This document shows positions 1-22,430 of a stretch of DNA of 30,265 nucleotides, piece by piece (position 1 is the stretch's first letter; every line of letters begins with the position of its first letter). Under the pieces are notes generated by a model. That model made no database searches. It was not told where the DNA came from and worked only from the letters and a program-made list of their open reading frames with translations. Source of the DNA: an uncultured Dehalococcoidia bacterium (GTDB lineage: Bacteria; Chloroflexota; Dehalococcoidia; SZUA-161; CAYRBX01); contig CAYRBX010000001.1 in assembly GCA_964422695.1 (NCBI GenBank), positions 1 through 30,265 of the forward strand, in the 5' to 3' direction. A program made the position numbers and the translations under genes.

Positions 1-1377
<1,377 letters not shown>

Positions 1378-1408
1378 CAGACCCGGCAGAGACCCATTCG
1401 ATATTCGG

Positions 1409-1483
<75 letters not shown>

Positions 1484-15008: not shown

Positions 15009-15401
15009 ATGAAGGTCGTAAGGAGAGAAGAGGTTTCGGCTTTCACGACGAAAGACGGATCTGAAATAAGAGAGCTTCTCGCCCCGAGGAATTCGGAGCT
15101 CAGAAATCTGAGCCTCGCCGAGGCGAGAGTTGAGCCGGGAGGAGAGACCGCGGAGCATTTTCACAAATCCTCGGATGAGATTTATTACATCCTCGAAGGA
15201 GAGGGGATCATGAGGATTGAAGGAGAAGAGCGGAAAGTGAGGCCGGGAGATGCGATCGCCATTCCCGCGGGAAGAAAGCATAAGATCAAAAACGATGGAG
15301 ATCGAGATCTCATCTTCCTCTGTTTCTGCGCTCCTTCTTACACTCACGAAGATACGATTATCACCGCTCCTCAGGGAAGGAGTTCGCAGCGAAGCTCGTA
15401 A
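15009..15401 (+). CDS. Cupin-domain protein
   Basis: TTKDGSEIRELL, SLAEARV, HFHKSSDEIYYILEGEG, IPAGRKHKIKN; SD GGAGGAG before ATG 15009. This is the real gene inside ORF-track 14196..15401. Confidence 0.9.
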   Translation: MKVVRREEVSAFTTKDGSEIRELLAPRNSELRNLSLAEARVEPGGETAEHFHKSSDEIYYILEGEGIMRIEGEERKVRPGDAIAIPAGRKHKIKNDGDRDLIFLCFCAPSYTHEDTIITAPQGRSSQRSS

Positions 15402-16471
15402 AGAAGTTGCGCCACCCCCTCCGGATCCCTTCTCAAAAAGAAGCGAGAGCATTCGAATTGTATTGCGACATCGAGGAATCCCTGCTCCACCTTCTCATGA
15501 AGCTTGAGGAGCTCTGAGGTTTTCCTTCCGGAGAAATGAAAGTTCATGGTGATCACCCTGATATCTCTGCTCTTCTCCAGTTCAAAGAGGGCTTTTCTTA
15601 TCTCCTCCCGCGTGTAATTCTCCACTTCAATTCCGTATAATCCCAATCCTTTTACGAGCGCTTGAATATCAAATCTCTCCCTGCTTGTGGGAGGTAAGGA
15701 GGAGGGATCGAGATCTTCTCTTTCCGGAGCAATCCACTCGAGAAATCTCAGAGCTCTTTTCGCGAAATCCCTTTTGTATTCCTCCGCTAAGGATTTAAAT
15801 CTCCGCCGGAATTTCATCTCCGCTCTCCTTACGATATCGAAGAAATCCTCAAGCGGCAGAAGGCCGAAATCTCCTATATCGACGACGGCTCCCAGAAGTC
15901 CGGTGCTGTGAATCGAAATCATAATCCTCTTGTGAGGTTTGAATTCATCTTTCCAAGCGCAGAGAGCCGCCAGTCCTCCCGTCCAAGAATCCATTTCCGC
16001 TTGAGGGAAGGGGATGTATTCATCGGGCTCTCGACGAACCTTCCCGCAATGAGGAGCGACGTAAATGGTTTTCGGCTCCTCTCCGAAGATGAAAGAGTAA
16101 AAGCGCTCGTAAATCCCCCTCTTGAGCTCATATTCCTGAGGATCTCTTGCCGGAAAAGCGTAAGTTCCTGTCCATCGACGATCGAGAAGAGCTTCGGGAA
16201 GGGCCTCATGATATTCCTGAGCTTCCTTGAGGGAGGGGAGAGCTCGATGGAAATCTATGCCGTATTTCCCCTCTTCGGGCTTATCATCTTGAGGCAATCT
16301 CGAAGCTGTGGAGAGGATGAGCCTTACTCCCTTTTTGCTCTCGAAGACCTCAAAACAGGGGTTTTGCTCCAAGATGCGGAATCTCTCCAGAAGCGCCGAT
16401 CTGGGGCCGAGATAAGCTCCATCCTCATCCTCCCGAACCAATTCCGGAATCTTCCCCCTTTTCGGGCTCAT
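15371..16471 (-). CDS. Hypothetical protein, probable N-formylglutamate amidohydrolase-like (Zn-exopeptidase fold)
   Basis: IYVAPHCG ... EMDSWTGGLA ... MISIHS ... VAIQFECSR match the order of the PHxG / D / HS / QxE motifs of FGase-like hydrolases; SD AGGAG overlaps the echF stop. Confidence 0.55.
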   Translation of the reverse strand: MSPKRGKIPELVREDEDGAYLGPRSALLERFRILEQNPCFEVFESKKGVRLILSTASRLPQDDKPEEGKYGIDFHRALPSLKEAQEYHEALPEALLDRRWTGTYAFPARDPQEYELKRGIYERFYSFIFGEEPKTIYVAPHCGKVRREPDEYIPFPQAEMDSWTGGLAALCAWKDEFKPHKRIMISIHSTGLLGAVVDIGDFGLLPLEDFFDIVRRAEMKFRRRFKSLAEEYKRDFAKRALRFLEWIAPEREDLDPSSLPPTSRERFDIQALVKGLGLYGIEVENYTREEIRKALFELEKSRDIRVITMNFHFSGRKTSELLKLHEKVEQGFLDVAIQFECSRFFLRRDPEGVAQLLYELRCELLP

Positions 16472-16480
16472 GAGAGGGGA

Positions 16481-16822
16481 TCAGCTCCTTCGAGGAGGAA
16501 CGTGCGTTTCGACTTTCTTCTCGTAATCGGGGGGATGGTAATGAGTATCCATGGTGATGGCTCCCGGAAGGCAGAATTCCACGCAAGTTCGGCAGTAAAT
16601 GCACTTGAAGGGATCGTAAGTGAGGCGCTTCCTCTCCGTATCGACTTCAATAGCTCCGGAAGGGCAAACCCGAGCGCAATCTCCGCAGAAATCGCAGCGC
16701 TCCGAATGGAAGATGAGCTTCCCCCGGGTCGCCGGAAACGGCTCTCTCTTCACGAACGGATAGCGTCTCGTAACAGGTCCTCTTAAGAGATTTCTGAATA
16801 AGGTCGGCAGCATCCAAGGCAT
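16481..16822 (-). CDS. echF: EchF/NuoI-like 2x[4Fe-4S] subunit
   Basis: GPVTRRYP, RGKL, CDFCGDCARVCP, CIYCRTCVEFC; ATG 16822 with SD AGGAGG. Confidence 0.88.
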   Translation of the reverse strand: MPWMLPTLFRNLLRGPVTRRYPFVKREPFPATRGKLIFHSERCDFCGDCARVCPSGAIEVDTERKRLTYDPFKCIYCRTCVEFCLPGAITMDTHYHPPDYEKKVETHVPPRRS

Positions 16823-16836
16823 CTTCTTCCTCCTCC

Positions 16837-17928
16837 TTACCTTTCTGTGCAGGCGATGCACGGATCGATGGAGAGGGTTATGACGGGAACGTCGGCGAGC
16901 TCGCATCCCGGAAGCATTACAAGCAGGGGCGGGATATTGGCGAAAGTGGGGGTTCTCACCTTCAATCTCTCAAGGTAGGGAGTTCCGTTCCCCTTGGCGT
17001 ACTCGAAGAGCTCTCCTCGAGGCTGCTCCACTCGCATGATGGCCTCTCCTTCCGGACATCCCTCCACCCGAACCATTATCTCCCTATCGTCCATCTTATC
17101 GATTCTGTCCAGAGCGGGGATTACGAGATCGAAGATGGATTGGTAGATCTCCCTTATTCGCACCAGAGTGCGGGCGTAGCTGTCGCAACCGTATTCCACC
17201 ACAGGCTCGAAGCCGAGCTCCCCGTAAGCCGCATAACCGGTCATTCGTGTATCCCAAGCCCACCCGCTTCCTCTGAGCGTGGGCCCCACCGCCCCCATCC
17301 TCCACGCATCCTCTTTGGGGAGAATCCCCTTCTCCACGGTTCTCGCCTTGATCGTGTAATCCCGGAGGAACAGATCCCTTATGGGATCCATGAGCTTCCT
17401 GAAGTCCTGCTCGAGCATTCGGCGCACGGCCTTGGACATCTCCCTGTCGATATCCCTTCTCACCCCTCCTATAACGCATGTGGATTGAATCACCCTCTGG
17501 CCGGAGGTCATCTCGAGGACATCCAAGATGATCTCCCTGATCCGCCAGATCTGCATGAAGGCGCTCTCGAAGCCGAGGGCGTCGGCGAGAAGCCCGAGCC
17601 ACAGGAGATGGCTGTGGGTTCTTGAAAGCTCGCTCCAGATAACGCGAAGGTATTTGGCGCGAGGAGGAACCTCAACACCCATCATCGTCTCTATGAGCTG
17701 GCAGTAGCAGAGAGCGTGAATGAAGCTGCAAATCCCGCATATGCGCTCGCAGAGGAAGACGTTCTGACGGAATCTATTCCTCTCAGCTCCCTTCTCGATT
17801 CCCCGATGAATGTATCCTATGATGGGAGTTACATTCACGACTTTCTCATCCTCGCACTCCAATTTCAGCTGGATGGGCTCGGGAAAGACCGGATGCTGCG
17901 GCCCGAAAGGCACTATAGTCCTTGCCAT
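16837..17928 (-). CDS. echE: Group 4 [NiFe]-hydrogenase large subunit, Ech type
   Basis: PFGPQHP, GYIHRGIEK, L1 ERICGICS, EQPRGE, RTPT, L2 DPCIACTER-stop; all four Ni-ligating Cys present and no cleavable C-terminal extension. ATG 17928 with SD GGAGGAG. Confidence 0.93.
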   Translation of the reverse strand: MARTIVPFGPQHPVFPEPIQLKLECEDEKVVNVTPIIGYIHRGIEKGAERNRFRQNVFLCERICGICSFIHALCYCQLIETMMGVEVPPRAKYLRVIWSELSRTHSHLLWLGLLADALGFESAFMQIWRIREIILDVLEMTSGQRVIQSTCVIGGVRRDIDREMSKAVRRMLEQDFRKLMDPIRDLFLRDYTIKARTVEKGILPKEDAWRMGAVGPTLRGSGWAWDTRMTGYAAYGELGFEPVVEYGCDSYARTLVRIREIYQSIFDLVIPALDRIDKMDDREIMVRVEGCPEGEAIMRVEQPRGELFEYAKGNGTPYLERLKVRTPTFANIPPLLVMLPGCELADVPVITLSIDPCIACTER

Positions 17929-17930
17929 CT

Positions 17931-19313
17931 TCACTCCTCCAGATCACATCTCCAGCATCTCCTCCCCTCATTCAGAGCTTCCTCCTCCGTGAGGCCTCGC
18001 TCCAGCTCCTCGGGGCCGAGCAGGCGAGGTCTCGGACGCTCAAGCTCTTTGAGCTTCTCCCTCTCGATGAAGGTGTAACGCCCTCTGGGCTCCGGGATCT
18101 CAAGCTCCTCCTCCAAGGTTCCCGTTCCGCCCAAGTACTTATCCACGGAGAGGGCGGCCTTGCGTCCCGACCCTATCGCGTGAACCACCGAAGTGGGGCC
18201 CGTGATGACATCTCCGGCGGCGAAAACGCCCTCCCTCGAGGTCGCCAGGGTTTCGGGATCGACCTCGATGGTCTCAAGCCCATCTCTTCGCGCCGCTGCG
18301 ACGCCGAGCTCCCTCAAAGCGCTCGGCCTTCCGGTGAGGGAGGAGACGACCGTGCCGTGAACAACTCCGGCGTGAGCGCCCAAAGCCAAGATTATAGCAT
18401 CGAAGCCTTGGGCGAAGAGCTTATCCAGAGAATCGACTTTGACGCCGGTGAGGATCTCCACTCCGAGCATTTTGATCTTGTTGATCTCATCGTCGAGAAC
18501 ATGCCTCGGAAGGCGCTTTTGGGATATGCCGTATCGCATTATCCCTCCGGGCTCGGGAAGGGCTTCGAAAATCGTCACCTTGTGCCCCAATTTGGCCAGG
18601 AAGAAAGCCGCGGTGAGCCCTGCGGGCCCGGATCCCACCACGGCCACCTTCTTGCCGGTGGGAGGCCGGATCGCCTTATCCGTCCACCTCCCCCGCTCAT
18701 ATGCGAAGCGCTTCAGGAGCTTTATCGCGATGGGCTGAGTGTGCCTTCCCTGGCGGCAGGCGTCCTCGCAGGGAGCGAAGCAAACCCAGCCGCAAACCCC
18801 CGGAAGCGGATTTGCGAGCCTTATGACTCCCAGAGCTTCCGAGTATCTCCCCTCGCCCACAAGCCGCACGTACCGCGGCACATCCACCCCCGCGGGGCAG
18901 GCTTTCGCGCATGGAGGGAGGAGGCGCATCGCCGGCTTCCTCTCGGGAACGGGCATGAGGATGGGGCGCTGAGGGCTCTCCTTGGCGAGCAGCAGGCCTC
19001 CTTTGTAATCGAGCACCCGACCTTCTATCCTGATTCCGGCGAATTCCATCATCTCGTTCTCGATGAGGGCGGCCGCAAGGTAAATGGGGGAGATGCTCGG
19101 AAGCTCCTCATCCTTTCCCACTTGAACGCGGATGTTCGTAACTCCTATCTCCTTATCGAATTCCTGCTCGAAATGGTAGATGACCTCGAATTTATCCCCC
19201 AGATCCACGCACGAAGCCGTGATGAAACGGTAATTCTCCTTGAAGAGCTTCCACACTTCAAGATGCAGCGTCTCTCTGGTCGCTCGGATTTCGGCTTTGA
19301 CCTGCCCTTTCAT
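17931..19313 (-). CDS. Fusion protein: EchD/NuoC-like domain, GltD/NfnB-type [4Fe-4S] domain and FAD-binding domain, lacking the NAD(P)H-binding domain
   Basis: N-terminal YRFITASCVDLGDKFEVIYHF...LPSISPIYLAAALIENEMMEFAGI (EchD/NuoC); PCAKACPAGVDVP..NPLPGVCGWVCFAPCEDAC; VAVVGSGPAGL; GVFAAGD; C-terminal EGRRCWRCD. ATG 19313 with SD GGAGG. Confidence 0.85.
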   Translation of the reverse strand: MKGQVKAEIRATRETLHLEVWKLFKENYRFITASCVDLGDKFEVIYHFEQEFDKEIGVTNIRVQVGKDEELPSISPIYLAAALIENEMMEFAGIRIEGRVLDYKGGLLLAKESPQRPILMPVPERKPAMRLLPPCAKACPAGVDVPRYVRLVGEGRYSEALGVIRLANPLPGVCGWVCFAPCEDACRQGRHTQPIAIKLLKRFAYERGRWTDKAIRPPTGKKVAVVGSGPAGLTAAFFLAKLGHKVTIFEALPEPGGIMRYGISQKRLPRHVLDDEINKIKMLGVEILTGVKVDSLDKLFAQGFDAIILALGAHAGVVHGTVVSSLTGRPSALRELGVAAARRDGLETIEVDPETLATSREGVFAAGDVITGPTSVVHAIGSGRKAALSVDKYLGGTGTLEEELEIPEPRGRYTFIEREKLKELERPRPRLLGPEELERGLTEEEALNEGRRCWRCDLEE

Positions 19314-19347
19314 CTCGCTCCTTCCTCCGCGCGGCATTCTCGGGATC

Positions 19348-19932
19348 TCAGAAGATCAGAGCTCTGGAGAGGGCGAATTTGGATTCGACGAGGCCCGTGG
19401 GGCAGAGCTCGAAACACTCCTTGCATTCGGCGCACACCTTCGCCGCTATCTCCGGAATGAACATGACATCCCTCTCCGTCCCCCGCCCCACGAATCCTAT
19501 CGCGTGAGCTCCCTTCACCTCGGCGCAATAGCGAACGCAGAGCCCGCAGAGAATGCAGAAAACGCCCTCCTTTTCGAACCTCACCCTCTCGACGCCGTAC
19601 TCGCGAGCAAGCGCGAGGAGCTTCTCCGAGCCCGGAGCGCGAGCCAGCATGAGCTCCAAGAGGATCTTCCGAATCCTCCTTATCTTCTCGGTGTTGGTGA
19701 GAACCTCAAGGCCGTCCTCAACGGGATAAACGCAGGCGACCACCGTTTGAGATCTCCCTCCCCGAACGATCTCCACCGAGCAGATGCGGCAGGCTCCGTA
19801 AGGCTCCAGCTTCTCGTGGTAGCAGAGGGTCGGAATCTCAATGCCGGCTTGCTTTGCGGCCTGAAGCAAAGTCATTCCCTTTTTGGCTTTCACCTCCCTG
19901 CCGTCTATCTTGAGCGTTACTTCCTCGCTCAT
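19348..19932 (-). CDS. Short NuoG/HydA-N-like Fe-S subunit ([2Fe-2S] + 2x[4Fe-4S])
   Basis: IPTLCYHEKLEPYGACRICSVE..VVAC; CILCGLCVRYC; CAECKECFELCPTG. No catalytic domain follows. Confidence 0.9.
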   Translation of the reverse strand: MSEEVTLKIDGREVKAKKGMTLLQAAKQAGIEIPTLCYHEKLEPYGACRICSVEIVRGGRSQTVVACVYPVEDGLEVLTNTEKIRRIRKILLELMLARAPGSEKLLALAREYGVERVRFEKEGVFCILCGLCVRYCAEVKGAHAIGFVGRGTERDVMFIPEIAAKVCAECKECFELCPTGLVESKFALSRALIF

Positions 19933-21857
19933 GCCTCTGCCCTCTCCCTTCGTATGATCCTCTCCTCCTCAGGAGGCGGAGGAGGAACCGGCTCTCCGGA
20001 GAGCTTTTTGACCGCGGCGAATCTCGGAGGACATACCTCCATACAAGTTCCGCACTTTATGCATTTCTCCTGAATGATGACGTGTACCTTGTTCTTCCCC
20101 CCGTCTATCGCTCCCGCCGGGCAGGCGCGCAGGCAGATCATGCAGGCCTGACATCTCTCCGGATCTATCCAGTAATTTACAAGAGCTTTGCATACTCCGG
20201 CGGGACATCTTCGATCTCTTATATGAGCTTCGTATTCGTCCCTGAAGTACCTCAATGTGGAGAGGATGGGATTGGCCGCGGTCCTTCCCAGAGCGCAGAG
20301 AGAGGCTTCGGAGAGAACCTCGCCGATCTCCTCAAGGAGCAGGATATCCTCCTCCGAGCCCTCTCCGGATCTTATCCTCTCCAGAATGCGAAGGGATTGC
20401 CTTATCCCCTCGCGACAGGGAACGCATTTCCCGCAGGATTCGCTCGCCAGGAAGTTGAGGAAGTACCAGGCGACATCCACCATGCACGTATCCTCATCCA
20501 TCACGATCATCCCTCCGGAGCCCATCATGGAGCCGAGCTTCGTGAGCTCATCGAAATCCACCGGCGTGTCCAAGTACTGCTCGGGAATCACCCCGCCGGA
20601 GGGGCCTCCGGTCTGAACGGCTTTGAATTTCTTCCCGTCTTTGATCCCCCCTCCGATCTTGTAGATGATATCCCTCAGGGTGATCCCCATGGGGACTTCG
20701 ATGAGGCCCGTGTTGTTCACCTTCCCCACGAGGGAGAAGATCTTGGTTCCGGGGCTCCCTTTGGTTCCGATGGAAGTGAACCAATCCGCCCCCCTGTTGA
20801 TGATCAAAGGAACGTTCGCCCACGTCTCCACATTATTGAGATTGGAGGGCTTCCCCCAAATCCCGCTTATGGAAGTTCGAATGTACTTGGGGCGGGGCTC
20901 CCCCACCTTCCCCTCTATCGCCGTCATGAGAGCGCTCGACTCCCCGGAGACGAAAGCGCCCGCCCCCCGATGCACCGTGACCTTGAAGCTGAATCCGGAT
21001 CCCAAGATGTTCTCGCCCAGAAGGCCGTATTCTTCGGCCTGTCGGATCGCCGTGAGCACGTTCTCCACGGCCAGAGGGTACTCCTGGCGGACGTAAATGA
21101 AGCCCTCATGAGCTCCTATGGCGTAAGCTCCGATGATAAGCCCTTCGAGCACCGAATGAGGATTTCCCTCCATCAAAGCTCTGTCCATGAAGGCCCCGGG
21201 GTCTCCCTCATCGCAATTGACGATCACATATTTGGGGGTTCCCGGAGCGTTGCGAGTCGTCTCCCACTTCCTTCCCGCGGGGAATCCGGCGCCGCCCCTC
21301 CCGCGCAGGTTGGCTTTCTTCACCTCCTCCAAGACCTGCTCCGGGGTCATATCGAATAGAGCTTTCGCCAGAGCCGAATACCCTCCCAGAGCTATGTAGT
21401 CCTCGATGTTCTTGGGATCGATCTTGGAGTTGTTGGCCAGAAGCAATCGCTGCTGGTGCTTGTAGAAGGGGATTTCGGACTCGTAAGCTATCCTCTCTCC
21501 TGTTTCCGGATCCTGATAGAGGAGGCGCTCCGCGATCTCCCCTCTTACAAGCGTTTTCTCCACGATCTCCGGAACATCTTCGGGCCGGACTTGCACGTAA
21601 TGAATTCCCTGAGGGTAGATGATGACGATCGTCCCCTTCTCGCAGAATCCCGGGCAGCCGGTCTCCTTTATATCCACCTTCCCCTCAAGGCCGCGCTTGG
21701 CGATCTCCTCCCGGAAGGCCTTGATCACATCTCTCGCTCCGAGCGCAAGACACCCCGTTCCGGCGCAAATCGCCGCGCAGGGCCTGTTGGGATCCCTCCG
21801 GCTTTGTATCTCCCTCCTGTAGTTCTCCAGATCCTCCCTCGAACTCAATCTCGGCAT
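19929..21857 (-). CDS. nuoF: NuoF/HydB-like FMN and NAD(P)H-binding subunit, long form
   Basis: N-terminal CAGTGC..GCPGFC; LRGRGGAGFP; NCDEGDPGAFMDR; GAGAFVSGESSAL; NNVET; GGPSGG; ESCGKCVPCREG..LCALG; DTC..HIRDRRCPAGVC; C-terminal CQACMICLRACP and CIKCGTCMEVCP. Confidence 0.95.
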   Translation of the reverse strand: MPRLSSREDLENYRREIQSRRDPNRPCAAICAGTGCLALGARDVIKAFREEIAKRGLEGKVDIKETGCPGFCEKGTIVIIYPQGIHYVQVRPEDVPEIVEKTLVRGEIAERLLYQDPETGERIAYESEIPFYKHQQRLLLANNSKIDPKNIEDYIALGGYSALAKALFDMTPEQVLEEVKKANLRGRGGAGFPAGRKWETTRNAPGTPKYVIVNCDEGDPGAFMDRALMEGNPHSVLEGLIIGAYAIGAHEGFIYVRQEYPLAVENVLTAIRQAEEYGLLGENILGSGFSFKVTVHRGAGAFVSGESSALMTAIEGKVGEPRPKYIRTSISGIWGKPSNLNNVETWANVPLIINRGADWFTSIGTKGSPGTKIFSLVGKVNNTGLIEVPMGITLRDIIYKIGGGIKDGKKFKAVQTGGPSGGVIPEQYLDTPVDFDELTKLGSMMGSGGMIVMDEDTCMVDVAWYFLNFLASESCGKCVPCREGIRQSLRILERIRSGEGSEEDILLLEEIGEVLSEASLCALGRTAANPILSTLRYFRDEYEAHIRDRRCPAGVCKALVNYWIDPERCQACMICLRACPAGAIDGGKNKVHVIIQEKCIKCGTCMEVCPPRFAAVKKLSGEPVPPPPPEEERIIRRERAEA

Positions 21858-21861
21858 CCCC

Positions 21862-22326
21862 CTACTCCTCCTCGTAACGTTTCAAGATCTCCTCCACTTT
21901 GGATACGGTCATCCCTCCATAATACGTCCCGTCGACGACCATAACGGGCCCCAGAGCGCAGCAGCCGAGGCAGTTTACGGTTTCGAGAGAGAAGCGCAGA
22001 TCGGAGCGCGTCTCCCCGGCTTTTATCCCGAGCACCTGCTCGACCCTCTCCAAGATCCTCGGAGATCCCCTCACATGACAGGCCGTTCCCATGCATACGG
22101 TGACGTGATGCTTCCCTTTGGGAACCAAGCTGAAGGCCTTGTAGAAGGTGGCGATGTGGTAAATTCGGGAGAGGGGGACTTTGAGCCTCTCGCTTATCCT
22201 CTTCAGGGCCTCCCGGGGAAGCCAGTTGAACTCCCTCTGAACCTCAAGGAGGATCTGGATGAGAGCGCTGGGATCGGCCTTGTAAGCGTCGATAATCCGA
22301 TCTACCTGCTCCAGCTCCGCGGTCAT
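21862..22326 (-). CDS. nuoE: NuoE/HydC-like [2Fe-2S] subunit
   Basis: LIQILLEVQ, ATFY, VCMGTACHVRG, VNCLGCCALGP. Confidence 0.95.
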   Translation of the reverse strand: MTAELEQVDRIIDAYKADPSALIQILLEVQREFNWLPREALKRISERLKVPLSRIYHIATFYKAFSLVPKGKHHVTVCMGTACHVRGSPRILERVEQVLGIKAGETRSDLRFSLETVNCLGCCALGPVMVVDGTYYGGMTVSKVEEILKRYEEE

Positions 22327-22369: not shown

Positions 22370-22399
22370 AGTATTTCCGCAAGCGAGCGCCGCAGTCAA
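22370..22399 (-). promoter_or_regulatory. Putative promoter of the nuoE...echF operon
   Basis: Minus strand TTGACT (22399-22394), 18-nt spacer, AATACT (22375-22370). Confidence 0.45.
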
Positions 22400-22401
22400 T
22401 T

Positions 22402-22430
22402 TTGAAATTTCCCCTCCGGAGATCTACAAT
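22402..22430 (+). promoter_or_regulatory. Sigma70-type promoter of rsfS, predicted leaderless transcript
   Basis: TTGAAA (22402-22407), 17-nt spacer, TACAAT (22425-22430); ATG at 22437. Confidence 0.72.

Follow-up and report, generated by a model that had tools for sequence, protein, structure and literature searches.

The gene at positions 17931..19313 (minus strand) of a 30,265-nucleotide stretch of DNA from an uncultured Dehalococcoidia bacterium (contig CAYRBX010000001.1, positions 1 to 30,265; referred to as the window) was shown by sequence comparison to encode an EchD-type subunit of a Bfu-linked, Ech-type (group 4) [NiFe]-hydrogenase, the system named Mbh-Bfu and, in Dehalococcoides, "Ech". 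In this subunit EchD is fused to a flavoprotein module of the NfnL type that lacks the NADPH-binding domain. We consider it probable that the module is an NfnL-type relic that wires BfuA to EchF and the [NiFe] site, with BfuBC replacing the NADPH site and EchC coming from elsewhere. The fused subunit itself is already known, being present in cultured Dehalococcoides mccartyi and noted in the literature, and the window operon is a variant of that known but uncharacterised system, lacking echABC.

Architecture of the fused subunit

The reading frame of the fusion was unbroken at 17931..19337 (468 aa), and 460 aa are obtained from the ATG at 19313. This ATG was taken as the true start because it is preceded, 6–10 nt upstream, by the Shine-Dalgarno sequence GGAGGAAGGAG and because a 98%-identical protein (P0001) is likewise 460 aa long. 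The TGA stop codon (17933..17931) lies 3 nt ahead of the echE ATG at 17928, and the echE Shine-Dalgarno sequence, GGAGGAG, sits within the final codons of the fusion gene. The D-L-E-E C-terminus is near-invariant across the fusion family, with a variable last residue; since its codons (window 17934–17945) double as the ribosome-binding site of echE, the same bases are under two constraints. An original prediction, made from the letters of the window and the translations of its reading frames, had described one intact, operon-coupled reading frame upstream of echE, and its coordinates proved exact.

A Pfam scan found Complex1_30kDa (42.1 bits, cut-off 22.5; residues 28–107 of the 468-aa frame), Fer4_20 and Pyr_redox_2 (E 3.5e-16, in two stretches), all three well over the curated cut-offs, which agrees with the anatomy proposed earlier of EchD/NuoC, two [4Fe-4S] clusters and FAD. 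NCBIfam models of the GltD/NfnB type matched partially, far under their full-length cut-offs, and NuoC_fam was matched too. The EchD domain has a predicted 30-kDa-subunit fold, its gene adjoins that of a NuoD-like large subunit, and it carries invariant YHFE, PSIS and ENE motifs that are common to fused and stand-alone EchD. The motifs PCAKACP, CFAPCEDAC, GSGPAG, FAAGD and, at the C-terminus, RRCWRC were all found in the fusion. Residues C135, C139, C178, C182, C186, K201, C453 and C456 were invariant in a 57-sequence alignment of the family, as were GSGPAG, GG.MR.GI, the G of AAGD and RCWRCDL.

The FAD-proximal cluster is predicted to be held by C139, C178, C182 and K201 (Cys3Lys), because these residues align without gaps to Cys108, Cys147, Cys151 and Lys170 of C. 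saccharolyticus NfnA (9bov_A), the ligands of the FAD-proximal cluster A7 of Nfn-ABC (PMC11829005). The predicted ligands of the second [4Fe-4S] cluster are C135 and C186 together with C453 and C456 from the C-terminus. Of the features that define GltD and NfnL, the Fer4_20 domain with ligands for two clusters and the FAD Rossmann fold (GxGxxG ... GD) are thus present in the sequence, and the hallmark second, NAD(P)H-binding Rossmann domain is absent.

When aligned to 592-aa homologues, the fusion lacked a block of ~132 residues between G320 and T321. The lost block holds the GGGNAAID Rossmann motif and an Arg-rich YRR(T/S) stretch, and the FAD-domain strands that flank the junction are retained. 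Compared with T. maritima NfnB (4ylf_B), residues 254–413 are swapped for 17 residues. The absence of the NAD(P)H domain had been predicted, and the alignments indicate a clean excision, not decay. Also upheld, at the level of sequence, was the proposal that the EchD partner of a group-4 large subunit has tethered to it a module with FAD and two clusters that lacks a domain for pyridine nucleotides. An AlphaFold2 (AF2) model of the fusion had a mean predicted local distance difference test score (pLDDT) of 83; the NuoC domain, the cluster domain and both FAD halves were confident, and the linker (residues 105–130), the junction (residues 311–330, pLDDT 52–56) and parts of the tail were poor.

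Relation to NfnABC and StnABC

The C-terminal two-thirds of the fusion is, as judged by homology, an NfnL/GltD-type module of the NfnABC/StnABC branch, with two [4Fe-4S] clusters and one FAD site. Both by sequence and by the fold of the AF2 model, the top PDB matches were C. saccharolyticus Nfn-ABC (9bov_A), Sporomusa StnABC (8oh5_C) and T. sibiricus NfnABC (9n5u_A); classical NfnB, GltD and DPD ranked after these NfnL-like domains of Bfu-family transhydrogenases. NfnABC (9bov, 9n5u) and StnABC (8oh5) have the same Cys3Lys ligation next to the FAD and a permuted CxxC after the FAD domain, and they are partnered with BfuA/B/C, as is the window fusion. The C-terminal sequence EEALNEGRRCWRCD of the fusion aligned to the post-FAD CxxC of 9bov_A and 8oh5_C and also to N-terminal residues 9–43 of T. 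maritima NfnB, so the C-terminal half-motif is a circular permutation common to the Nfn-ABC/Stn branch. The original prediction had remarked that this CxxC is C-terminal in the fusion and N-terminal in GltD; its position was correct, but it is not peculiar to the fusion, and it was rejected as a novelty since StnC and NfnA have it in common.

NfnA and StnC retain the NADPH Rossmann domain and oxidise NADPH, unlike the window fusion. Their module is fused to BfuA and an Fdh-like domain, whereas that of the window is fused to EchD, with BfuA encoded by a separate neighbouring gene; judged from the genes alone, the third substrate would be H2/H+, which also differs from NfnABC and StnABC. A relative of NfnA was seen in one of the loci compared below (L001, 18648–21389), where a third nuoE/nuoF pair is followed by a 718-aa protein composed of a BfuA N-terminus, Fer4_20 and Pyr_redox_2, with hypA and hypB just upstream.

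The counterpart in Dehalococcoides and other comparison systems

Two of the loci compared (L147, L156) are from D. mccartyi, whose short, 461-aa protein AAW39860.1/Q3Z857 has been annotated as "hydrogenase subunit, putative", "FAD-dependent oxidoreductase" and "Energy converting NiFe hydrogenase cytoplasmic subunit EchD". Over its whole length the window fusion showed 50% identity to it, the order of domains and the deletion junction being the same, and in both organisms bfuC-bfuB-bfuA lie upstream and echE-echF downstream of the fusion. The earlier supposition that no described hydrogenase has such a subunit was overturned, as the same EchD is encoded in the D. mccartyi Ech operon. Schut et al. 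(2022) named that nine-gene cluster, with six energy-converting hydrogenase genes around bfuABC, "Mbh-Bfu" and reported its genes to be co-expressed in strain 195 (PMC9304861). They noted a subunit with an additional flavin-binding site (Mbh-BfuG), left its function open, and presented H2-dependent reduction of NAD+ and ferredoxin with ion translocation as a prediction only (PMC9304861). The literature search returned no dedicated account of a NuoC/GltD or EchD plus NfnB fusion, the Bfu classification paper (PMC9304861) alone mentioning the subunit, and no explanation of the flavin site was found in the literature searched.

The window operon encodes a bifurcating-type BfuB (FMN, N-terminal [2Fe-2S], C-terminal 2x[4Fe-4S]) with BfuC and a small BfuA, the flavin-site subunit corresponding by sequence to Mbh-BfuG between bfuA and echE, a group-4 large subunit with both CxxC [NiFe] motifs, and an EchF-type 2x[4Fe-4S] subunit. 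EchC (Oxidored_q6), EchA (NuoL-like) and EchB (NuoH-like), which belong to Mbh-Bfu, were not encoded in the operon within the 30-kb window. In D. mccartyi echA-echB-echC stand directly upstream, within one nine-gene operon, whereas in the window the region upstream of bfuC holds a promoter-like site, an rsfS-like gene (plus strand) and ndk (minus strand). The window organism also differs from D. mccartyi in belonging to a deep Chloroflexota lineage; its FtsZ was closest to Chloroflexota/Dehalococcoidia proteins, at an identity of only 55–57% to named Dehalococcoidia.

Three further systems were compared. One soluble [NiFe]-hydrogenase of the Bfu type is NiFe-HydABCSL of Acetomicrobium mobile (7t2r; PMC8880783), which has in HydB the closest solved relative of the window BfuB; its catalytic module is a group-3 pair of large and small subunits, with no EchD, NfnL module or FAD. 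Classical Ech and MBH of group 4 (P. furiosus MBH, 6cfw) share with the window the homologues of EchD, EchE and EchF and the [NiFe] motifs, but their EchD is unfused (stand-alone, 116–150 aa), ferredoxin is their sole partner, and small and membrane subunits are always present. In the Mbx-like clusters of Thermotoga (PMC4758237) a GltD-family flavoprotein is attached to a group-4, complex-I-like module as in the window; there it is a separate, complete, NAD(P)H-binding protein, unlike the window fusion.

Long and short forms of the fusion

A search of 5.8 billion proteins returned thousands of relatives of the fusion, of which the best 120 were inspected. All of these 120 were fusions of NuoC, Fer4_20 and Pyr_redox_2, and they fell into three length classes of ~460–474 aa (the short form; 48–59% identity), ~592 aa (the long form) and ~723 aa, the last with an N-terminal response-regulator receiver domain. 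For gene neighbourhoods, 80 metagenome loci were collected with EchD-specific patterns and ten more by exact-protein look-ups, and were annotated by phmmer with the window proteins and EchA, EchB and EchC of L003 as queries. A scan of genome contigs with the full-length fusion alignment was swamped by the generic GSGPAGL pattern and returned mostly ordinary GltD-like genes.

Stand-alone EchD was found in 23 loci, in ordinary echABCDEF clusters. Long and short fusions were told apart over 55 metagenomic loci. Long and receiver-long fusions occupied 31 loci in the order echA-echB-echC-[fusion]-echE-echF, with echC directly upstream in 31/31 where the contig reaches and Bfu genes in 0/31. In contrast, bfuA was directly upstream of the short form in 24/24 loci with a visible upstream gene and of the long form in none of the 31. 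The bfuC and bfuB genes were placed ahead of bfuA (e.g., L099, L111, L121, L147, L156) or after echF (L166, L168), and bfuC was within the operon of every short-form locus having enough context. Nine-gene operons with echABC and the short form were seen, for example, in L121 and L147. The long forms of uncultured Dehalococcoidia (592 aa, or 723 aa with the receiver) agree with the window fusion in the EchD domain, the clusters, the FAD motifs and the C-terminal RCWRCDLE, at 52–59% identity, but they keep the GGGNAAID NAD(P)H domain and are never accompanied by Bfu genes.

In a neighbour-joining tree of shared alignment columns (no bootstrap, midpoint-rooted), the short forms were monophyletic and sister to the receiver-long clade. 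The original prediction had suggested a search for homologues with the same fusion and deletion, and had regarded close relatives with a complete NAD(P)H domain as the mark of a recent deletion, decay or assembly artefact. The long-form relatives keep that domain; the homologues found place the short form in a separate clade that appears old and conserved and includes cultured Dehalococcoides. A recent deletion or pseudogene was accordingly rejected as an account of the short form, on the strength of this clade and of low ratios of nonsynonymous to synonymous polymorphism (pN/pS; given below).

Several other features of these loci were recorded. Receiver fusions of 723 aa were found in L005 (10001–12172), L088, L089, L091, L093–L095 and L097; the acidic pair, the phospho-acceptor Asp (LLDMRLPG), the Thr and the Lys of the receiver domain seemed intact, so this hydrogenase subunit might be controlled by phosphorylation, which would be unusual. 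Directly upstream of the long-form ech operon, L098, L109 and L113–L115 carry a second cluster of the group-4, Mbx-like kind (NuoB, large subunit, NuoI, NuoH), in which a GltD-like gene of 450–490 aa is complete and separate, from which it appears that GltD-type flavoproteins have been attached repeatedly to group-4 modules. In L001 (3450–6585) a GAF/PAS histidine kinase and a response regulator lie between the long-form and short-form operons, which suggests that the two hydrogenase arms are regulated differently.

The flavin site

The FAD Rossmann motifs GSGPAG, FEA and GG.MR.GI were unchanged in short and long forms alike, and their conservation indicates that the FAD site of the short form is still under selection. 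One account of this would be that the exposed FAD is a working catalytic site, serving either as a second bifurcating flavin or as the site for a carrier other than a pyridine nucleotide (ferredoxin, flavodoxin or a small redox molecule). In its favour, all members of the short clade keep the FAD motifs although they have lost the hydride donor site, the homologous FAD of NfnSL is the bifurcating flavin (PMC11829005, introduction), and the function of the site is the one left open by Schut et al. (2022) (PMC9304861). The fusion differs from NfnSL in having no NADPH domain, however, and in its nearest relatives, NfnABC and Stn, the FAD is non-bifurcating: it is the end of the electron chain in Nfn-ABC, where the BfuB FMN, jointly with clusters B1 and C1, is taken to be the bifurcating site (PMC11829005). 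The original prediction of an extra bifurcation site thus runs counter to the closest solved structures. Moreover, a cluster-fed flavin without a two-electron hydride partner would have no obvious route to bifurcation, and no candidate partner gene is conserved beside the operon. A catalytic role of the FAD is for these reasons considered unlikely.

The missing echABC genes

Pfam annotation of all reading frames of the 30-kb window found no Oxidored_q6, NADHdh or Proton_antipo_M gene, and a regular-expression search for the NuoB motif over all six frames of the window found no hidden small subunit. Among short-form operons, intact echC was present in ten of the 15 informative loci, together with echB and echA wherever the contig reaches; EchA and EchB were present in L099, L121, L147, L156, L166, L168 and L169. 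A small subunit is thus normally present in the family, as echA-echB-echC are in the same operon among the relatives. The absence of a small subunit, as predicted earlier, therefore held for the window but is not a property of the enzyme: only the window lineage and four loci with a decayed echC are without an intact echC nearby.

Each of those four loci (L001, L112, L100, L165) has a complete long-form operon ahead of the short-form one, with no more than a broken echC in front of nuoE (Table 1). A frameshift at ...LAAVVP|IYDVE... is common to L112, L100 and L001. All four carry further lesions, among them a second frameshift and a change of PGC to PGY in L001; L100 has an internal deletion, and L165 is heavily decayed. 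Since the loci bear such additional, differing lesions, a programmed frameshift was rejected as the cause of the fragmented echC. The remaining genes (nuoE, nuoF, hoxU, fusion, echE) gave a crude pN/pS of 0.06–0.19 between L001 and L165, similar to the 0.05–0.13 obtained for pairs of loci with intact echC.

The only close relative of the window locus, L170, has ~97% nucleotide identity to it from window position ~21100 down to ~16100 and is likewise without echC adjoining the operon genes. Crude pN/pS between the two was 0.09 for bfuA, 0.08 for the fusion, 0.06 for echE and 0.07 for echF, and the window operon genes are thus under purifying selection. The N-terminal CxxC was kept in 52/52 aligned large subunits and the C-terminal CxxC in all but L138, where the alignment has a gap; the large subunits of the window and of the loci with an echC pseudogene are among those with both motifs. 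All [NiFe], Fe-S and FAD ligands are intact in the sequence of the window operon. The catalytic arm is therefore maintained where no intact echC is nearby, as the retained CxxC motifs and the low pN/pS imply.

These data bear on a reading in which the six window genes suffice for a soluble, cytoplasmic Bfu-type [NiFe]-hydrogenase of group 4 that has no small subunit. The proximal cluster of EchC would be replaced by one of the [4Fe-4S] clusters in the truncated NfnL module, brought to the large subunit by the fused EchD domain. This reading would agree with the lack of an Oxidored_q6 gene in 30 kb and the promoter-like site of bfuC itself, with the lack of an adjoining echC in L170 as well, with the echC pseudogenes in four other loci where the rest of the operon is under purifying selection, and with the integrity of all catalytic ligands. 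Against this, the intact echC in 10/15 informative short-form loci indicates that the enzyme of the family uses EchC, and all four pseudogene loci adjoin a long-form operon with intact echC. The long form, moreover, has the same module alongside EchC, so the module does not stand in the place of EchC there. We know of no [NiFe]-hydrogenase without a small subunit, and we hold this reading to be distinctly improbable.

Loss of echABC could also be the sign of a decaying remnant or an assembly artefact without function. L170 gives this some colour. Over its positions 1–1300, compared with window 21100–21857, identity drops to 60–75% within the first ~750 nt of bfuB, and a porB-like gene stands ahead of bfuB in place of nuoE. 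This breakpoint reflects either recombination with a Por-Bfu paralogue or a chimeric assembly, and it implies that rearrangements or chimeric assemblies occur in the window lineage. Yet the six frames of the window are intact and translationally coupled with every ligand kept, pN/pS between window and L170 is 0.06–0.09, and D. mccartyi, a cultured organism whose operon is reportedly expressed (PMC9304861), has the same architecture. In addition, an independent contig, L086, was 100% identical over fusion residues 1–128, the part compared. A remnant or artefact is hence barely credible.

Proposed origin and mechanism

In the origin that we propose, the older form of the family would be a complete NfnL module, including its NADPH domain, in a plain echABC-[D~NfnL]-EF operon. 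This long form would be an NADPH-linked Ech in which electrons pass in the order NADPH, FAD, two clusters, EchF, EchC and [NiFe], coupled to EchAB. In one descendant clade the NADPH Rossmann domain would have been excised exactly and the BfuABC genes would have joined the operon, bfuA being always directly upstream of the truncated fusion. BfuBC, with its FMN, would then have taken over as the NAD(H)/ferredoxin site, and the truncated module would serve as adaptor and wire from the BfuA clusters to EchF and thence to the [NiFe] site. The FAD would act as an in-line relay on the face once covered by the NADPH domain, or as a dead-end electron store. In the literature searched, no paper was found to set out this origin, with the excision coupled to the entry of Bfu.

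In the window lineage EchC, and possibly EchAB, would most likely be supplied from another locus. Such supply in trans is plausible, since in L001, L112, L100 and L165 a decayed echC stands behind a complete long-form operon while the other genes have pN/pS of 0.06–0.19.

Several points weigh against this proposal. Homology and gene order are the sole grounds for FAD binding, for the order of the cofactors and for the docking of BfuA. At the junction the AF2 model has low confidence and cannot show what covers the flavin, and the tree has no bootstrap support and is rooted by midpoint. No echC was found for the window organism within its known 30 kb, which makes supply in trans an assumption. 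Finally, an FAD site that is a mere relic would not be expected to stay invariant in a clade whose members are only ~50% identical.

The operon and its flanks

Six tightly packed minus-strand genes (nuoE-like, nuoF-like, hoxU-like, fusion, echE, echF; 22326 to 16481) make up the window operon (Table 1). BfuB has an N-terminal thioredoxin-like [2Fe-2S] domain and a C-terminal 2x[4Fe-4S] domain and is assigned by its sequence to the bifurcating type; its nearest solved relative was HydB of the bifurcating NiFe-HydABCSL (7t2r_B, E 6e-252, residues 28–616). The cysteines of BfuA form one [2Fe-2S] motif and two CxxCxxCxxxC(P) ferredoxin-type motifs, and its top PDB match was a NuoG-like protein (9mqx_A, E 1e-39). 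EchE carries RICGICSFIH and DPCIACTER and matched best the P. furiosus MBH subunit 6cfw_L (E 4e-78). The position of echF downstream of echE is conserved in most loci. The 366-aa protein encoded next had no Pfam, NCBIfam or PDB match and was absent from all other Ech/Bfu loci compared, L170 excepted; it may be a lineage-specific operon member.

Between nuoE (minus strand) and the rsfS-like gene (plus strand), at window 22370–22430, are promoter-like matches arranged back to back; they are consensus matches only, found at about the chance rate (three sites against 2.6 expected). Window 1–1483 carries the 3' part of a 23S rRNA gene and, 29 nt further on, tRNA-Met; no 5S rRNA gene was detected in the window.

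Table 1. Features of the window operon and the echC pseudogenes of related loci (window coordinates unless a locus is named)
Feature	Position	Strand	Basis or remark
EchD~deltaNfnL fusion, 460 aa	17931..19313	-	orthologue-like to D. mccartyi "EchD"/Mbh-BfuG
EchD/NuoC (Complex1_30kDa) domain, residues 1–105	18999..19313	-	Pfam E 1.5e-10; pLDDT 88–96 for residues 11–100
Fer4_20 domain, residues 132–215	18669..18920	-	Pfam E 3.2e-20; alignment to Csac NfnA 9bov_A
FAD Rossmann domain part 1, residues 216–320 (GSGPAG, FEA, GG.MR.GI)	18354..18668	-	Pfam Pyr_redox_2, NAD_binding_8
Deletion scar, G320/T321	18351..18356	-	alignment to long-form relatives with ~132-aa NAD(P)H Rossmann domain
FAD domain part 2, residues 321–400 (FAAGD)	18114..18353	-	alignments
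C-terminal tail, circularly permuted helix and CxxC (C453, C456 at 17946..17957)	17934..18113	-	alignment to NfnB, 9bov_A, 8oh5_C
bfuC, nuoE-like [2Fe-2S] subunit, first operon gene	21862..22326	-	Pfam 2Fe-2S_thioredx E 4.8e-54; NCBIfam HoxE/NuoE
bfuB, nuoF-like FMN subunit	19929..21857	-	Pfam Complex1_51K, NADH_4Fe-4S, Fer4, 2Fe-2S_thioredx
bfuA, hoxU-like subunit, 194 aa	19348..19932	-	Pfam Fer2_4 E 1e-20, Fer4_7
echE, group-4 [NiFe] large subunit, 363 aa	16837..17928	-	Pfam Complex1_49kDa E 1e-54, NiFeSe_Hases
echF, nuoI-like 2x[4Fe-4S] subunit, 113 aa from MPWML	16481..16822	-	Pfam Fer4 families; NCBIfam NuoI
366-aa protein, 10 nt downstream of echF	15371..16471	-	same position in L170, 94% aa identity
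Sigma-70-like promoter match, TTGACT-18-AATACT	22370..22399	-	~40 nt upstream of bfuC; consensus match only
echC pseudogenes	L001 6670–7003; L112 6489–6999; L100 11495–11900; L165 6724–6981		directly upstream of nuoE

Implications for the Mbh-Bfu family

The classification of the Mbh-Bfu system is unchanged by the window findings. The fused flavin subunit of the Dehalococcoides "Ech", flagged in the literature as unexplained, gains a concrete proposed origin from an NfnL-type NADPH module, the nucleotide domain of which would have been excised when BfuABC entered the operon, and the truncated module gains a testable role in linking BfuA to EchF as adaptor and wire. Uncultured Dehalococcoidia seem to possess, in the long form, an Ech that is probably NADPH-linked, and some versions of it have a receiver domain. 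The window represents an echABC-less variant under purifying selection and raises the question of a catalytic arm with its small subunit in trans as opposed to one with none. If the latter were true, a natural [NiFe]-hydrogenase lacking a small subunit would be known for the first time, an example of a Q-module of the complex-I type rebuilt around a foreign Fe-S domain, and the lineage with echC pseudogenes would represent the loss of the small subunit in the making.

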